64,000 nucleotides of DNA, from assembly GCF_022846255.1 (NCBI RefSeq), contig NZ_AP025682.1; one strand, 5' to 3'. The DNA comes from Escherichia coli (GTDB taxonomy: Bacteria > Pseudomonadota > Gammaproteobacteria > Enterobacterales > Enterobacteriaceae). Below are positions 1-7,592 of this stretch, piece after piece. The stretch's first letter is position 1; the number at the start of each line of letters is the position of its first letter. The translations under genes were made by a program, and so were the position numbers. The notes under the pieces were generated by a model that was given only the letters and a program-made list of their open reading frames with translations, had not been told where the DNA came from and did no database searches.

Positions 1-184
1 ACCTCGCACGTTTTGACTCATATTCTGACAACACAGCGACACCTGGGCTAATTCGAAAAACAACGTCCTGCCACCGGATGGTGATGTTAAGGCATCTGAT
101 TCGGCCTGCGCCCTCGCGTAGGCCGAATACAGGATCTGCGCAATCAACGGGTAACAAACAGTTGAGTCAATTCAGTGCGCACTT

Positions 185-1738
185 TTATTTGATATCCTTC
201 ACGCGCATACCGTTGAGCTGTTCATCCGTAATGGTGTTGCCCGCTTTGAAGTAATCAACCACCGCGTGATAAACGTAATAACCGCCCGTTGTGTTACGCG
301 CTTTCCCTTCGGTAAAGGCGGTAAAACCATCTCCACCATCAGCAAGGAAACTCTGAGTAGCAATGTGATAAACCGTCGCATCTTCAATGGGTTTGCCATT
401 CAGAGTCAGTGTGATTACCCGCTGACCAACCGGCTTGCTGCTGTCGTACTTCATTTCCAGGCCTTTCGATACCTGTAAAACGCCATTGCTTAAACTTGCG
501 CCGTGTTCCATCAGACTGCGTAATTGTTTACCCGTGAGTTCCATCGTCACCAGTTCGTTGGGGAACGGGAACGTACTGATAACGCCGCCCATCGTGATCG
601 CCCCTGCGGGGATCTCATTGCGGATACCACCAGAGTTTGTTAACGCCAGTTGGGTATTTTTACCCGCTGCTGCCAGTAAAGCGTCAGCCGCCAGGTTCCC
701 GAGGGAAGCCGATTCACCATAGGCACGTTTTAATTCAACCGGCGATTGCGCCACCGTTTGTTGCACCACTTCATCAAGCTTTTTATTCCAGCCGTCGATC
801 ACCTGTTTCGTTTGCGGATCGGGCTTCCACTCGTCAGCGTAAATGGTTTTAAGCTCGAAGTTTTTCACCGTAAAATTATGCGGCTTCTCTTTGTAGTCGA
901 GAACCAGTTTGCCCACATCAATCCCGCCGCTGTCAGTGGAGAGGATGAGCGTATTGCCGACTTTAATCGGTTCCGGCGTACCCACATGTGCATGTCCGGT
1001 GATCAAAATATCCAGCCCTTTCACCTGACTTGCCGTCTGAATATCTTTATCCAACGCGCGACGCACATCTGTGCCTCCCATACTGGACTGGCGGGCCGGA
1101 ACACCTTCATGGATCAGGGCGACGGTCAAATCAACCTTGCCTTTAAGTTCATCGATATAACGTTGTAGCCATTTAATTTCATCACGCGCCTCAATACCCA
1201 CTCGCGTGGCAGCAGATACTGTGTCATTAAAGGCAAATACACCGTGCAAACCTATAACGCCTATTTTCACACCGTCTTTTTCGATGATGGTATAGGGCTT
1301 ATCCCAGAATGATTTACTGCTGTTCTGATAAAAAACATTGCCCTGCACAATCGGGAATTTTGCCTGACTCAACTGTAATAATGTGTTGTCCCAGCCGTGG
1401 TCAAATTCATGGTTGCCTATCGTGACGGCATCAAACGGCATAGTATTCATAATATCGATAATAGCCTTACCTTTGGTCAGGCTGCTGATATATGGCCCGG
1501 TAAAATAGTCGCCCGCATCAAAAAACCATGTCGCTTTATTTTTTGCTTTTTCTTGCTTAACCAGCGTAGTGATATTTGCCCAGCCGCCAATATCCCGTTT
1601 ACCGTTCGCAATCCACGGCACTTTATAAGGCTCTACATGTGCATGGAGGTCGTTAGTATAAATAATGGTGACATCTTTGGCGCAAGCCCAGAACGGCAAT
1701 GTTAATGCGATACCCGCAGCAAGTATTTTAATTTTCAT
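185..1738 (-). CDS. secreted UshA-family metallophosphoesterase / 5'-nucleotidase, paralog 1 (ORF extends to TTG at 1744; first ATG at 1738)
   Basis: N-terminal signal peptide; calcineurin-like phosphoesterase motifs [35 protein letters not shown]; long C-terminal domain as in 5'-nucleotidases; SD-like AAGGGA upstream of ATG. Confidence 0.8.
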
Positions 1739-1797
1739 AAACAATCCCTTTCAGTGAGATAAAGGATTGCTACATTACGTTCTGAAAGACTTATTTA

Positions 1798-1813
1798 TGT
1801 GAGAGTAATCACA
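1798..1813. promoter_or_regulatory. candidate CRP binding site TGTGAgagtaaTCACA in divergent promoter region
   Basis: both half-sites match consensus TGTGA-N6-TCACA exactly; centred about 65 bp from each flanking start codon. Confidence 0.6.
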
Positions 1814-1870
1814 TCCGCAGGGGATAGTTGCCGGACAAAATCAACGACCTTGTGAAATCGTTGGTGATAT

Positions 1871-2995
1871 ATGTCGACTCTGTTTACGATTAATGCCTGT
1901 AAAACGTTCGGTTGCCGAAATTTGGGATTGGCCTCATCGGAAGATTACAGTTGGCCAGACTATAAACTGGGTTATCCGGCACTGCACTGTCGGGCATGTG
2001 GAAGTTACCCGCCGTTGTTTGACGAACAGCAATTTCGTGACTGGTTGTCAGTTCACTTATCTACTTTTGCAACTGAGAAAGGTCATTTCTGCCCGGTATG
2101 TTATGGCACAGACATGATTTGTTATGGTCACAATCCACAGGGTTCGCAACGCATTCAATGCCGTAACTGCAAAAAAGTCTGGACGCCTAAAAAATATCAG
2201 AAAGAAATTACGCATCCCCAGGCCATTGAAACCGTTCAACTGTTCATACCCTTTCAAGGGGCCAGTGCAGTACAAAAACTGTATGTTTTAGTCAGTCTTG
2301 ACGCCACTCGTGGCAACATTCTTCATCTCTCCACGAATTATACGCAACATCAGACAGGAGACAGTCTGCGGTACAGTTACAAGGGCAACACAGAACCAAC
2401 TATGCACCATCGCGATATCGTGCAGAAGGTAGATATGCGTGAAGCGCAATTCTTGCGCCGGAGCCAGTTCGATGAAATTCAGTATGGCAGTGCTGTACTC
2501 AAGCGCAACGGTAAGGGAGCCATACTACGCCCGGTTATCACGGCACACGGGCATTTCAGAATACTGAAAATCCGCTATCCAGATGTCAAAACGCATATTA
2601 TTTCACACGAATGTTTTCTAAGAGGCGCAATTATTACAGCCTGGGCAGATCAGTTCCGCCAACAACAAGGTGAACTTTGGTTCGTAGAAGAAGAAATCAG
2701 TGACAGTAACGCTGATACGCCCTGGCATTTTAAGGGAACGACATACCATGGTTGGTGGCAAAATCAGTGGCAGCGCTGGGAGCAGGGGAATAACTGCAAG
2801 ATGGTCTGCCTACTCACGGGAGCCTGCTTAGAAAGGGGCGCAAATGTTTCTCTGGCAACCAGTCGTTGTTTTATCACATGGCTGACAGACCAACACGACT
2901 TTACCCAAAGCGCGTTATTATCCGCAGGTCGCGTAACACAAATGCTGACCTCACTGGCGTTAAAATACAATGAATCGCTCACTCCATCTTGTTAG
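1871..2995 (+). CDS. zinc-ribbon protein of unknown function; second Cys cluster resembles IS1 InsA / transposase-type zinc ribbon; possibly transposase-derived
   Basis: 374-aa ORF; C-x4-C...C-x2-C and CPVC-x19-CRNC-x3-W motifs in first 100 aa; no terminal inverted repeats seen around it. Confidence 0.5.
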   Translation: MSTLFTINACKTFGCRNLGLASSEDYSWPDYKLGYPALHCRACGSYPPLFDEQQFRDWLSVHLSTFATEKGHFCPVCYGTDMICYGHNPQGSQRIQCRNCKKVWTPKKYQKEITHPQAIETVQLFIPFQGASAVQKLYVLVSLDATRGNILHLSTNYTQHQTGDSLRYSYKGNTEPTMHHRDIVQKVDMREAQFLRRSQFDEIQYGSAVLKRNGKGAILRPVITAHGHFRILKIRYPDVKTHIISHECFLRGAIITAWADQFRQQQGELWFVEEEISDSNADTPWHFKGTTYHGWWQNQWQRWEQGNNCKMVCLLTGACLERGANVSLATSRCFITWLTDQHDFTQSALLSAGRVTQMLTSLALKYNESLTPSC

Positions 2996-3114
2996 TCAAT
3001 ACACTCGACAAACGACCATAAATTAAGAGAGAGCACTACCTTTCATTTAATTAAATATATAAATGTATGACCGTGAAATATAATCATGGTCAATGTTTAA
3101 TTAATAACATTATT

Positions 3115-3130
3115 TGTTACTAAGATCACA
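3115..3130. promoter_or_regulatory. weak CRP-like site TGTTActaagaTCACA upstream of nucleotidase paralog 2
   Basis: one perfect half-site, one with a G-to-T change; about 100 bp upstream of start codon. Confidence 0.3.
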
Positions 3131-3162
3131 CAATACTTTTCTGAACTATGCTTACATAAAAT

Positions 3163-3179
3163 AAGACACGATGTGTCTT
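3163..3179 (+). terminator. hairpin aagacac-gat-gtgtctt followed by T-rich tract
   Basis: 7-bp stem, 3-nt loop, then tttatttaaa; lies between zinc-ribbon gene and paralog 2. Confidence 0.35.
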
Positions 3180-3224
3180 TTATTTAAATAATTCAACAAA
3201 TGTAACACACCCTATCCAGGAGGG

Positions 3225-4778
3225 ATGATGAAAACTGTATTTACAACATTATCAGTCATATTCGGCGTGATATTTTCTCACAGTGTTCTAGCTCAGGACG
3301 TTACTATTTATTATACGAATGACATTCACGCACATGTCAATCCGGCAAAAATCATCGCTGTTGATAAGAACAGACTTATAGGTGGTATGGCTAATATTGC
3401 AGGCATCGTTAATGAAGCGAAGAAAAAAAGCAAAGATGTGTTTTTCTTTGATGCAGGCGACTATTTTACCGGGCCGTATATCAGCACCCTGACCAAAGGT
3501 GAAGCTATTATTGATATCATGAACACTATGCCCTTTGATGCGGTGTCTGTTGGTAATCACGAGTTCGATCACGGTGTGCCCAATATGGTGTCTCAGTTAT
3601 CAAAAGCAAAATTTCCCATTCTGCTGGGAAATATCTACTACACCGATACGAATAAACCAGTTTGGGATCATCCGTGGACCATTATCGAAAAAGATGGTTT
3701 AAAGATTGGTGTGATTGGATTGCATGGCGCATTCGCTTTCTATGATACAGTCGCGGCAAAAGCACGTGAAGGCGTAGAAGCCAGAGACGAAATTAAATAT
3801 TTAAATAAAGCACTTGCAGAATTAAAAGGTAAAGTCGACATTACCGTTTTGCTAATTCACGAAGGTGTCCCGGCGCGTCAATCAAGCTTTGGTAGTAAAG
3901 ATGTGGAGCGGCTACTACAGGCAGATATTGAGACAGCTAAAAAAGTGAATGGTGTTGATGTCTTAATTACCGGTCACGCACATGTCGGAACACCGCAACC
4001 AATAAAAGTTAATAACACATTAATTGTATCTACCGATGCATACGGCACCAACATCGGAAAACTTGTGCTTGATTACAATCCGAAAACGAAGAAAATTGAT
4101 AGTTATAATGGTGAGTTAATCACCATCTTTGCAGATCAATTTAAACCTGACACCATCGTTCAAAATACTATTGATAAATGGAGTGCAAAGCTTAACAAAA
4201 TAACACAGGAAGTTGTCGGCCATTCTCCCGTAGTTTTAACACGTGAGTATGGTAGTTCCTCTTCTACCGGCAACCTTATTCTTGATGCAATGATGGAAAA
4301 AACACCTGATGCCGTTGCCGGATTTCAAAATAGCGGTGGGATGCGAGCTGATTTTCCTAAAGGCGATATCACACTGGGAGATGTTATTAGCACATTCCCC
4401 TTTAATAATGACCTCATCGAGATGGATTTGACGGGCCGCGATCTCAAATCATTGATGACGCATGCAACCAATCTAACTAACGGTGTGTTACAAGTTTCTA
4501 AAAGTGTTGCGGTTGTCTATGACAGCAAAAAACCACTCAACCAACGGTTAATCTCTTTCACCATTAACGGCAAACCCGTGGAAGATAATCAAACATATCG
4601 TATTGCCACGCACTCCTTTTGTGCCAGTGGTGGTGACGGTTTTGAAGCATTTTTGAATGGAAAAAATGTGAAAACGATACCGGGAACAACCTCGGCGGAA
4701 TCTATCATCGATTATTTCAAAAATCACAAGCCTATCACCCCAGACTTAACTAAACGAGTCATGGACGTCGCCAAATAA
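3225..4778 (+). CDS. secreted UshA-family metallophosphoesterase / 5'-nucleotidase, paralog 2 (start may be second ATG at 3228)
   Basis: signal peptide ending VLA-QDV; motifs [35 protein letters not shown]; AT-rich coding sequence. Confidence 0.8.
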   Translation: MMKTVFTTLSVIFGVIFSHSVLAQDVTIYYTNDIHAHVNPAKIIAVDKNRLIGGMANIAGIVNEAKKKSKDVFFFDAGDYFTGPYISTLTKGEAIIDIMNTMPFDAVSVGNHEFDHGVPNMVSQLSKAKFPILLGNIYYTDTNKPVWDHPWTIIEKDGLKIGVIGLHGAFAFYDTVAAKAREGVEARDEIKYLNKALAELKGKVDITVLLIHEGVPARQSSFGSKDVERLLQADIETAKKVNGVDVLITGHAHVGTPQPIKVNNTLIVSTDAYGTNIGKLVLDYNPKTKKIDSYNGELITIFADQFKPDTIVQNTIDKWSAKLNKITQEVVGHSPVVLTREYGSSSSTGNLILDAMMEKTPDAVAGFQNSGGMRADFPKGDITLGDVISTFPFNNDLIEMDLTGRDLKSLMTHATNLTNGVLQVSKSVAVVYDSKKPLNQRLISFTINGKPVEDNQTYRIATHSFCASGGDGFEAFLNGKNVKTIPGTTSAESIIDYFKNHKPITPDLTKRVMDVAK

Positions 4779-4818
4779 AATCTCATTTATCAGTCAATTT
4801 ATTTAACAAGGAATGTGA

Positions 4819-6438
4819 ATGAAAACAGCGCAGTGTACTTTACTTGCCGCAACATTGCTGACTATTTTTTCGACCTCAGTCATGGCGCAGGATGTCACGA
4901 TTATTTATACCAATGATCTTCACGCTCATGTGGATTCCTATAAAGTACCGTATGTCGCAGACGGAAAACGCGACATTGGTGGCTTTGCCAATATATCCAC
5001 GTTAGTAAAACAAGAGAAAGCCAAAAATAAAGCCACCTTTTATTTTGATGCTGGAGACTATTTCACCGGGCCATATATCAGTAGCCTGACAAAGGGCGAA
5101 GCAATAATTGATATTATGAATACCATGCCTTTTGACGCAGTATCAATCGGTAATCATGAGTTTGACCATGGCTGGGATAATGCCCTCCGACAATTAAGCA
5201 AAGCGAATTTCCCTGTTTTATTAGGCAATGTTTATCATAAAGAGAGTGAGAAACCCTTCTGGAACAAGCCCTACACCATCCTGGAAAAAGATGGCATCAA
5301 GATTGGTATTGTTGGGCTACACGGCGTATTTGCATTTAATGACACGGTCTCGGAGCTCTCTCTCCAGGGACTCGATAATGACAATAATAACCGATTTGAT
5401 AAATCTTCCGCGACCCTCAAGAATCAGGGGATTGAAGCACGTGATGAAGTGAAGTATTTGCAGCATTATATCGATGAGTTACGTGATAAGGTTGACCTCA
5501 CCGTGGCGCTGGTTCATGAAGGCGTACCGGCGCGTCAGTCCAGCATTGGCAATACAGATGTTAGACGTGCGCTGGATAAAGATATTCAAACCGCAAGCAA
5601 GGTGAAAGGATTGGATATTCTGATTACCGGGCATGCCCACGTCGGAACGCCAGAACCAATCAAAGTCGGCAACACCTTAATCCTTTCGACTGACAGTGGC
5701 GGTATCGATATTGGTAAATTAATCCTTGATGTCAACCCTACAGCTCGTACTCATAAAGTGAAGAGCTTTGAGCTGAAAACGGTTTATGCCGATGAATGGA
5801 TACCCGATCCAACCACACAAAAAGTTATCAATGGCTGGAATAAAAAACTGGCGGATCTTGTACGCCAACCAGTCGGTGAATCATCGATTGCATTAACTCG
5901 TGCCTACGGTGAGTCATCGCAACTTGGCAACCTGTTTACCGATGCAATGCTTGTCGCTGCACCGACTGCACAAATTGCGTTGATAAACTCCGGCAGTTTA
6001 CGTGCTGATATAAATGCAGGCACGATTACCTTTGGTGACATTACCAGTACATTCCCCTTCAAGAATGAACTTACTGAAATGGATCTCAGCGGTAAGGATC
6101 TGCGTAACCTACTGGAACACGGGGCATCGCTTACCAATGGCATCCTGCAAATGTCAAAAGGCGCAGAAATGCGCTATACCCTGCAGAAACCAGTAGGTCA
6201 GCGCATTGTATCTTTTAAAATTAATGGTGAAGAGATCGTTGATACGAATATTTACCATGTTGCGACTACGACTTTCCTTGCACTTGGGGGCGATGGTTTT
6301 CTGGCATTCAAAGAAGGGAAAAATGTCCAGGTCCGCGCCGGAAATAACATGTCCAATGTCGTAATCGATTATTTTAAGAAAGGCCACAAGATTACTCCTG
6401 CACAGGTAAATGAAATGCGGGTAGAAGTAAGCAAATAA
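4819..6438 (+). CDS. secreted UshA-family metallophosphoesterase / 5'-nucleotidase, paralog 3 (carries an 18-aa insertion relative to paralogs 1 and 2)
   Basis: signal peptide ending VMA-QDV; same five phosphoesterase motifs; SD AAGGAA upstream; starts 40 bp after paralog 2. Confidence 0.8.
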   Translation: MKTAQCTLLAATLLTIFSTSVMAQDVTIIYTNDLHAHVDSYKVPYVADGKRDIGGFANISTLVKQEKAKNKATFYFDAGDYFTGPYISSLTKGEAIIDIMNTMPFDAVSIGNHEFDHGWDNALRQLSKANFPVLLGNVYHKESEKPFWNKPYTILEKDGIKIGIVGLHGVFAFNDTVSELSLQGLDNDNNNRFDKSSATLKNQGIEARDEVKYLQHYIDELRDKVDLTVALVHEGVPARQSSIGNTDVRRALDKDIQTASKVKGLDILITGHAHVGTPEPIKVGNTLILSTDSGGIDIGKLILDVNPTARTHKVKSFELKTVYADEWIPDPTTQKVINGWNKKLADLVRQPVGESSIALTRAYGESSQLGNLFTDAMLVAAPTAQIALINSGSLRADINAGTITFGDITSTFPFKNELTEMDLSGKDLRNLLEHGASLTNGILQMSKGAEMRYTLQKPVGQRIVSFKINGEEIVDTNIYHVATTTFLALGGDGFLAFKEGKNVQVRAGNNMSNVVIDYFKKGHKITPAQVNEMRVEVSK

Positions 6439-6514
6439 CAAAAACTTATAATACCATTCATTCACTGGATGACATTATTTCTCTCTAAATCAACAATATA
6501 TAAGAGATATATTT

Positions 6515-7375
6515 ATGTATATAAAAAAGCACTGGATAGCTTTATCCATTCTATTAATACCTTGCATTGGAAACGCTCAGGAAATTAAAATTGATGAAAG
6601 CTCGTTACATCAAAGCTTGAATGTCATTGGTCGCACAGACTCTCGCTTTGGCCCAAGACTGACTAACGACCTCTACCCTGAATATACTGTAGCAGGAAGA
6701 AAAGACTGGTTTGATTTTTATGGTTATGTTGATCTACCGAAATTCTTTGGCGTCGGCAGTCACTATGATGTTGGGATCTGGGATGAAGGCTCACCACTAT
6801 TTACGGAAATAGAACCTCGGTTTTCCATTGACAAATTGACCGGATTAAATCTTGCGTTCGGCCCATTTAAAGAATGGTTCATTGCAAACAACTATGTCTA
6901 TGATATGGGTGACAACCAGTCATCCCGGCAAAGTACATGGTATATGGGGCTTGGTACAGATATCGACACGGGTCTACCAATTAAGCTTTCTGCCAATATA
7001 TACGCCAAGTATCAGTGGCAAAACTATGGTGCCGCTAATGAAAATGAATGGGACGGATATCGATTCAAAATAAAATATAGCATCCCTCTTACAAATTTAT
7101 TCGGAGGGCGATTGGTATACAATAGTTTTACTAACTTTGATTTTGGCTCCGATCTTGCGGACAAGTCACACAATAATAAACGAACCAGTAATGCTATTGC
7201 TTCAAGCCATATCCTTTCCCTTCTATATGAACACTGGAAATTTGCATTTACACTACGTTATTTTCACAACGGTGGACAATGGAATGCGGGAGAGAAGGTT
7301 AACTTCGGAGATGGTCCATTTGAATTAAAAAATACAGGATGGGGAACCTATACTACTATTGGTTATCAATTTTAA
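6515..7375 (+). CDS. Tsx-like nucleoside-specific outer-membrane channel (Tsx/OmpK family paralog)
   Basis: 286 aa, signal peptide, C-terminal Phe; blocks such as [37 protein letters not shown] and [26 protein letters not shown] recalled from Tsx. Confidence 0.7.
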
Positions 7376-7472
7376 ATTAGGTGACATTTTAGATATTGTT
7401 ACTTAATGTCATTTTGTAATTGTCATTAATAACTTCACCATTCACTCTGTTACTTCATCGCTCAACACAAAA

Positions 7473-7492
7473 GCCCCCTTATTACCGGGGGC
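7473..7492 (-). terminator. hairpin gccccc-N8-gggggc with T-rich tract on the minus strand
   Basis: inverted repeat followed on minus strand by ttttgtgtt. Confidence 0.35.
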
Positions 7493-7556
7493 ACTGACCA
7501 AAGGCAAAATGACAATCAATCACCACTTCCCCAGGAAGAGGTTTCGGGGTGACAAC

Positions 7557-7583
7557 AAAAGCTGGCAACTGCCAGCTTTTGTT
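7557..7583. terminator. bidirectional intrinsic terminator between Tsx-like gene and metL
   Basis: 8-bp stem agctggca/tgccagct flanked by an A-run and a T-run. Confidence 0.6.
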
Positions 7584-7592
7584 CAATAATCA

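Follow-up and report, generated by a model that had tools for sequence, protein, structure and literature searches.

A second, divergent Tsx-family channel gene encoded beside 5'-nucleotidase genes in Escherichia coli

Tsx, a textbook substrate-specific channel, also serves T6-like phages and colicin K as their receptor. In Escherichia coli K-12, an outer-membrane channel of this type belongs to the UshA/CytR/CRP nucleoside pathway, in which nucleotides are dephosphorylated in the periplasm and the resulting nucleosides are taken up (UshA salvage). OmpF/OmpC/PhoE serve as an entry route for nucleotides themselves, and albicidin enters the cell via Tsx.

Among the closest known systems is the genomic island GR 31 (metL..metF), reported from the avian pathogenic strain APEC BEN2908 and other ExPEC/AIEC model strains in a 2026 comparative genomics study, which noted a product with 67% identity to Tsx together with three UshA-like ORFs and suggested a coordinated nucleoside processing/transport system (PMC12928451). 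That paper covers the same island and genes as those analyzed here and is a purely comparative description, without phylogeny, loop or residue mapping, regulation, cross-genus linkage or topology (PMC12928451). It was the one descriptive genomics paper returned by our literature search, in which experimental work on the cassette genes was not found. A second group of relatives, embedded in nucleotidase operons of Enterobacter hormaechei, Citrobacter freundii, E. albertii and others, is annotated merely as 'Tsx' (clusters P0076 and P0087).

Here, we analyzed a 64-kb stretch of E. coli DNA (contig NZ_AP025682.1; hereafter, the window) containing a Tsx-like gene that we call tsxL. The Tsx annotation and the island were already known. 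Our analysis adds proof of paralogy, a clade structure and a view of the cassette across genera; it also locates conserved CRP-type sites, maps residues and loops, and corrects the topology. We read tsxL as the last gene of an NT2-NT3-tsxL operon within a five-gene, catabolite-controlled cassette that scavenges external nucleotides and nucleosides, and assign this reading a probability of about 0.6.

The channel gene and its neighbors

The tsxL gene (6515..7375, + strand) is a 286-aa ORF with an ATG start, taken from the ORF list, that passes the same family models as K-12 Tsx. It matched Pfam Channel_Tsx (PF03502) with E = 2.2e-69 and 234 bits against a cut-off of 27.2. For the Tsx-subfamily model NCBIfam PRK15106, the score was 488 bits (cut-off, 311), and the match spanned model positions 6-289 of 289. 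Using BLASTP, 168/260 residues (65%) were identical to K-12 Tsx. A phmmer search of the PDB returned 1TLW, 1TLY and 1TLZ (E = 1.9e-113), these Tsx structures being the only solved relatives. An AF2 model built from a 78-sequence alignment had a mean pLDDT of 91.3, a pTM of 0.86 and 12 strands, and aligned to 1TLW in Foldseek with E = 5.9e-34, a target-normalised TM of 0.94 and an rmsd of 0.9 Å; tsxL is thereby predicted to share the 12-stranded outer-membrane beta-barrel of Tsx.

As the first-pass annotation had claimed for this ORF, a signal peptide and a C-terminal Phe can both be read in the sequence. The predicted Sec signal peptide (6515..6577, + strand) comprises 21 aa, with cleavage placed by eye after GNA and before QE, and residues 5-18 of this N-terminus form a helix of low confidence in the AF2 model; the protein ends in ...GYQF. 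A signal-peptide-like N-terminus and a C-terminal aromatic residue are features of outer-membrane targeting, for which tsxL accordingly appears equipped, as is K-12 Tsx. RefSeq gives its product the name 'nucleoside-specific channel-forming protein Tsx', the same as for Tsx. The gene is intact, and tsxL is most likely a functional Tsx-family paralog with the predicted function of the family.

The neighboring nucleotidases described at first pass were confirmed as three 5'-nucleotidase-family ORFs. NT1 (185..1738 within an ORF at 185..1744, - strand) encodes a 517-aa 5'-nucleotidase with a signal peptide, presumably periplasmic and ~99% identical to PDB 3IVD/3IVE; NT2 (3225..4778, + strand) encodes a 517-aa metallophosphatase/5'-nucleotidase with a signal peptide and would be the first gene of the putative operon; and NT3 (4819..6438, + strand), directly upstream of tsxL, encodes a 539-aa metallophosphatase/5'-nucleotidase, also with a signal peptide. 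The Pfam domains Metallophos and 5_nucleotid_C are present in all three products, and the nucleotidase alignment shows no variation at the DxH, GDxxxG, GNHE and GHxH residues. Unlike in UshA salvage, channel and enzymes are encoded together, and the cassette enzymes form a separate subfamily: none of NT1, NT2 and NT3 reached the threshold of an NCBIfam equivalog, UshA included. NT1 was crystallized as a soluble protein from residue ~19 onward (PDB 3IVD/3IVE, 'Nucleotidase'), reportedly in complex with uridine and with cytidine. We considered whether NT1 is anchored as a lipoprotein by Cys19 and rejected this, as this Cys is not conserved in the nucleotidase alignment.

The remaining cassette member, hyp374 (1871..2995, + strand), lies in divergent orientation to NT1 and encodes a conserved 374-aa protein with two four-Cys motifs, all eight Cys being invariant. 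It had no Pfam match above cut-off, and we take it for a Zn-ribbon protein. Its AF2 model reached a pLDDT of 90.7; searching the PDB with this model yielded no significant fold match (best E = 5e-3, TM ~0.2), with weak RNase H-like hints.

Linkage across genera, regulation and direction of flow

NT2, NT3 and tsxL all lie on the + strand, with gaps of 40 bp (NT2-NT3) and 76 bp (NT3-tsxL), and this spacing suggests that they are co-transcribed. A terminator scan found no terminator-like site between the three genes, and a weak promoter-like match was located in the NT3-tsxL spacer; in both scans, matches were fewer than in shuffled sequence, and we use them descriptively.

A nucleotidase profile scan of one genome per species (GTDB), with 61 loci re-annotated by tblastn, revealed that a hyp374 homolog adjoins a nucleotidase gene in most loci examined, mostly in divergent orientation. 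The divergent hyp374+NT1 pair lies beside metL without a Tsx gene in Klebsiella, many Citrobacter, Kosakonia, Phytobacter and Kluyvera, and also in S. enterica arizonae and E. whittamii. Nucleotidase genes of Proteus, Serratia, Vibrio and Photobacterium likewise have a hyp374 homolog, though a more distant one, as neighbor. By this comparison, the island in the window is an older hyp374+NT1 module into which NT2-NT3-tsxL has been inserted, between hyp374 and metL. Within E. coli, the hyp374+NT1 pair was detected in 1844 genomes, and 660 of those carry the full island. The pair thus occurs without any Tsx paralog in ~1180 E. coli genomes, and likewise in many other genera, indicating that the channel is not required for persistence of the nucleotidase module.

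The genes of a third Tsx clade are embedded in operons of nucleotidase genes, either between these or right behind them (gene order hyp, NT, NT, Tsx, (NT)), and were seen in Citrobacter spp., Enterobacter asburiae, E. vonholyi, E. hormaechei, C. freundii, E. albertii and Escherichia sp. The loci occupy chromosomal sites unrelated to metL, and a hyp374 homolog is always present. The embedded paralogs are 57-60% identical to tsxL and have in common with it L37P, V232T, A233L, loss of the conserved Glu40 and membership in a cassette with a hyp374 homolog, which in their case contains 2-3 paralogous 5'-nucleotidases; they differ from tsxL in that the gene lies between nucleotidase genes and not last, and in their chromosomal sites. 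Because two Tsx lineages recur with the same enzyme family and hyp374 in three genomic contexts, the genes probably form a functional module. The tie between tsxL and the nucleotidases drawn at first pass is seen both in the window, where the two lie on the same strand, and as a linkage that recurs in other genera and at other sites, which is good evidence that the channel is functionally coupled to the enzymes.

The sole close relative of tsxL outside E. coli was found in Citrobacter enshiensis (85% identity, with other matches at ≤69%), in which the five cassette genes, plus one extra gene, form an island at the same place. In a neighbor-joining (NJ) tree with 200 bootstraps, tsxL and its C. 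enshiensis ortholog formed a clade with 100% support, sister (94.5%) to a clade of paralogs located between sprT/endA and galP. These two and the nucleotidase-embedded clade grouped apart from canonical Tsx with 81.5% support. Complete E. coli genomes in RefSeq contained neither the sprT-linked nor the nucleotidase-embedded paralogs.

Comparison of the E. coli and C. enshiensis genes gave a dN/dS of 0.062 and a dS of 1.3, and tsxL is under purifying selection. As this dS is comparable to that of the flanking metL (0.97, of the same order), we regard the gene as old and maintained. Its G+C content is low (~0.40 versus 0.57 in metL). Recent horizontal acquisition from a distant donor was nonetheless rejected, based on the metL-like dS and on the hyp374+NT1 core being syntenic across Enterobacteriaceae; old residence with repeated loss fits better than recent import.

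The divergent promoter region of NT1 and hyp374 contains a perfect CRP-type palindrome, TGTGAGAGTAATCACA (TGTGA-N6-TCACA; 1798..1813), identified by pattern search and one of just two zero-mismatch CRP-type matches in the window. Its half-sites, with ≤1 mismatch and similar spacing, are present in 39/46 hyp374-NT intergenic regions examined from many genera, while the six-base spacer varies; conserved half-sites flanking a variable spacer are the signature of a protein-binding site. Pattern searching upstream of NT2 identified a second conserved block (3090..3130), which contains a CRP-like TGTTACTAAGATCACA (3115..3130, one mismatch) and a near-palindrome, AATGTTTAATTAATAACATT, at ~3092..3111. 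This block of ~40 bp is kept between E. coli and C. enshiensis, whereas its flanks have diverged. Inspection of 1745..1870 and 2996..3224 gave no clear GTTGCATT-type CytR repeats or DeoR palindrome. CRP-type sites therefore stand conserved ahead of both promoters, in likeness to UshA salvage, and are candidates for CRP binding, although the palindrome at 1798..1813 could instead be an operator for a local regulator such as hyp374.

In the scavenging cassette that we favor, transcription would occur when cAMP-CRP is active, and the channel would then insert into the outer membrane and admit nucleosides, possibly along with phosphorylated forms, to the periplasm. There, the three Sec-exported 5'-nucleotidases would strip phosphate, and the housekeeping inner-membrane transporters NupC/NupG, encoded elsewhere, would finish uptake. 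This sequence of dephosphorylation and nucleoside uptake would parallel UshA salvage in K-12, with a Tsx-type outer-membrane channel in the same physiological route. In this scheme, co-transcription, residence of the enzymes in the periplasm, the direction of flow and the nature of the permeant are inferred.

The first-pass annotation had suggested that the channel may take up the island's reaction products, a direction of flow that is doubtful and most likely inverts the topology. All three nucleotidases carry Sec-type signal peptides, and NT1 was soluble when crystallized, so their products would arise in the periplasm and would no longer need a channel through the outer membrane. Its role would consequently lie upstream of the enzymes, on external nucleosides and/or enzyme substrates, and admission of substrate is more plausible than uptake of the products. 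Tsx, UshA and porins are already present in E. coli, which leaves the added benefit of such a cassette less than obvious; this counts against the model, as does the persistence of hyp374+NT1 in genomes without a Tsx paralog.

Pore and surface loops compared with K-12 Tsx

We aligned tsxL to K-12 Tsx and mapped differences onto loops, with strand and loop boundaries for identity counts taken from the tsxL AF2 model. This mapping, proposed at first pass, left the family match firm and showed L5 and L6 to be heavily changed. Strands were 69% identical and periplasmic turns 72%, against 54% for the extracellular loops, among them L5 (43% identical, 5 residues missing) and L6 (48% identical). The earlier statement that the protein differs from Tsx in many loop regions is thus correct for the extracellular loops but incomplete, since divergence is also found outside them: strand S11 is just 36% identical. 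Where 63 canonical Tsx sequences show conservation of 90% or more, the changes in tsxL include S22R, L37P, E40T, H228K, V232T and A233L as well as loss of the SDWW motif at the N-terminus.

Nucleoside transport by Tsx is impaired by F27L, G28R/E, S217R, G239D and G240D, and residues 198-207 together with N249/N254 form part of the phage T6 receptor area (PMC6499177). All five transport positions (F27, G28, S217, G239 and G240) are identical in tsxL and its C. enshiensis ortholog. The determinants of nucleoside transport are therefore conserved in tsxL, for which permeation itself is predicted.

One alternative is that nucleotidase-linked Tsx paralogs, unlike canonical Tsx, admit nucleotides or phosphate esters as enzyme substrates through an anion-adapted pore, which we consider unlikely. 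It is in keeping with the topology described above, in which the substrates of the enzymes, and not their products, need passage across the outer membrane. The changes from S22 to R, E40 to T and H228 to K all run in the positive direction, at positions at least 95% conserved in canonical Tsx that share strand register with invariant charged residues, and these residues lend support to the alternation register used below. The near-invariant Glu40 is missing from each of the three paralog clades, with Arg in its place in the embedded clade, which would suit a pore tolerant of phosphate groups. The predicted net lumen charge, with lumen-facing strand positions assigned by hydrophobic alternation rather than from coordinates and with a weak signal in the three strands S5, S10 and S11, was +2 for tsxL, +0.9 for the nucleotidase-embedded clade and +0.5 for the sprT-linked clade, compared to -1 for K-12 Tsx and a mean of -2.0 (range -4 to +1) for the 63 canonical sequences. 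The predicted lumen is thus more positive in the paralog clades than the canonical mean, and in tsxL than in K-12 Tsx. That the lumen-facing positions come from alternation, with a weak signal in three strands, tells against the proposal, as do the five unchanged nucleoside-specificity residues, the narrowness of the Tsx pore and the known entry of nucleotides via OmpF/OmpC/PhoE. A tentative extension, to be held with the same reserve, is that tsxL and the embedded clade, perhaps joined by the sprT-linked clade, make up an unrecognized subfamily of nucleotidase-linked paralogs with a pore re-tuned to phosphorylated nucleosides through loss of Glu40 and gain of Arg22 and Lys228. If true, Enterobacteriaceae would have a dedicated outer-membrane entry for nucleotides, feeding co-encoded periplasmic nucleotidases.

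The segments of tsxL that correspond to the receptor area differ markedly from K-12 Tsx. Of mature residues 198-207, tsxL keeps 1, lacks 5 and has substitutions at the other 4; between 239 and 254, 7/16 differ, including Asn254 to Pro, while N249 is retained. The first-pass suggestion of altered phage sensitivity is plausible on these grounds, with both receptor-area segments heavily changed. The same changes lend themselves to a quite doubtful alternative, in which tsxL is a redundant backup channel whose loops go unseen by Tsx phages, colicin K and Tsx-dependent antibiotics, such that tsx could be lost or varied without losing nucleoside uptake and the linkage to nucleotidases would be incidental. 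The phage-receptor segments are indeed the most changed, and extracellular loops are less conserved than strands. However, the nucleotidase linkage recurs in an independent Tsx clade at several loci, and every carrier listed also has a canonical tsx match. Two E. coli tsxL alleles differ at 7 aa, 0 of which fall in extracellular loops, so this pair bears no arms-race signature. Moreover, L5 length is hypervariable across the whole Tsx family and Pro is the commonest residue at position 254 in canonical Tsx of other genera, making a shorter L5 and Pro254 common outside the paralogs as well.

A second Tsx locus in E. coli

We found tsxL in 660/5426 complete E. coli genomes (12%, or ~1 in 8) using megablast, always on the chromosome and, in 658/660 carriers, with ≥80% of the gene covered by one place. 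In E. coli carriers, the gene lies between metL and metF (in strain RM14723, within a five-gene insert between metF and metL), whereas K-12 tsx is flanked by yajI and yajD. A distant blastn search located Tsx-like DNA at 6084 places in 5423 genomes (5423 + 661), with two places per genome in every carrier listed, and the presence of canonical tsx in carriers was judged from these per-genome place counts. Searching the whole window with K-12 Tsx by tblastn gave no match other than the tsxL ORF, in agreement with the first-pass view that canonical tsx lies elsewhere.

The accessory gene tsxL is therefore a paralog at a separate locus, in a separate clade and encoded after two nucleotidase genes, and not the ortholog of E. 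coli tsx. Its description at first pass as a second, divergent Tsx-family channel is upheld by the 65% identity, its own locus and the additional canonical match in listed carriers. The possibility raised there, that this is simply the strain's only tsx allele, was checked and does not agree with two Tsx-like places per carrier and the metL-metF locus. It is thus highly improbable that tsxL is a decaying duplicate or an unusually divergent allele of the strain's tsx, as its shared RefSeq product name might suggest, given its position away from yajI and yajD, the place counts, the strong bootstrap for a separate clade, and an intact frame with low dN/dS and ≥80% coverage of the gene in 658/660 carriers; the place counts, the metL-metF locus and the dN/dS of 0.062 refute both the only-allele and the pseudogene readings.

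In kind, there is nothing surprising here: the gene carries a Tsx annotation, the island was described earlier, and tsxL is an uncharacterised family member in a conserved module. If its pore accepts nucleotides, it would illustrate how a small number of substitutions in the lumen can re-tune a nucleoside channel. The presence of a second, maintained Tsx in ~1/8 of E. coli genomes could alter predictions of phage host range, and could likewise alter the resistance predicted from tsx loss in clinical strains. For the organism, the cassette may add nucleotide-harvesting capacity in the gut, urine and host tissue.

Occupancy and variation of the metL–metF island

We surveyed the metL–metF interval (window 1..7592) among 5,426 complete E. 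coli genomes, revealing three states. The empty, K-12-type interval accounted for ~66% of genomes. The pair formed by hyp374, a gene for a 374-aa protein, and the divergent 5'-nucleotidase-family gene NT1 was matched in 1,844 of the 5,426, with the Tsx-family channel gene tsxL also matched in 660 of these 1,844 and ~1,180 lacking it.

The nucleotidase genes themselves also vary. In strain RM14723, the ortholog of the second nucleotidase gene, NT2, is annotated as frameshifted (L001 10725..12264) while the rest of the island is near-identical, and single nucleotidase copies are therefore dispensable in some strains. The product of the third gene, NT3 (4819..6438), carries an Asn-rich insertion of ~21 aa, ELSLQGLDNDNNNRFDKSSATLKNQ, at residues ~180–204, which is absent from NT1 and NT2. 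The Citrobacter enshiensis island includes an additional 327-aa gene between tsxL and metL (L003 11292..12275), for which a Pfam search returned no match.

We also observed cytR at window 15274..16305 (+), ~8 kb away from the island. CytR represses the nucleoside-catabolism regulon, to which tsx belongs. Because the gene order around cytR matches that of the annotated E. coli chromosome, its closeness to the island is probably coincidental.

tsxL alleles and a third Tsx paralog

Two E. coli alleles of tsxL, from the window and from a second locus (L066 9001..9861), were 97.7% identical at the DNA level and differed at seven amino acids, six of which fell in the signal peptide or at the start of the mature protein (window 6515..6604, residues 2–30). 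One difference, S30W, brings back one Trp of the SDWW motif of canonical Tsx. The closest sister of tsxL, at 67% identity, is a third Tsx paralog clade located between sprT/endA and galP (L004 8001..8849, in an enterobacterium), where endA encodes the periplasmic endonuclease I. No member of this clade was found in complete E. coli genomes.

Conserved intergenic sequences and the hyp374 protein

A palindrome, TGTGA-N6-TCACA, lies between hyp374 and NT1 (window 1798..1813) and recurs at the equivalent intergenic position, with similar spacing, in 38 other loci from many genera, with a spacer that differs among loci. This is most likely a CRP site or, failing that, the operator of hyp374. Upstream of NT2, a block at 3090..3130 is kept between E. 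coli and C. enshiensis despite diverged flanks, and contains the near-palindrome AATGTTTAATTAATAACATT immediately 5' of a CRP-like site.

The conserved hyp374 gene (window 1871..2995, +) has homologs at L003, L007–L009, L013–L046 and other loci. From Escherichia to Vibrio and Photobacterium, a homolog adjoins a 5'-nucleotidase gene, usually divergently. Eight Cys are invariant, four in each of two motifs: C10/C15/C40/C43 and C74/C77/C97/C100. Among the homologs, no Asp or Glu is invariant. A Pfam search assigned no family, and the AF2 model, which was confident (pLDDT 90.7), had no significant fold match in the PDB. Weak RNase H-like hints (NurA, EndoV, PIWI and transposases) were accompanied by IS1-type Zn-ribbon matches, and hyp374 may be a domesticated transposase serving as a regulator of the cassette.
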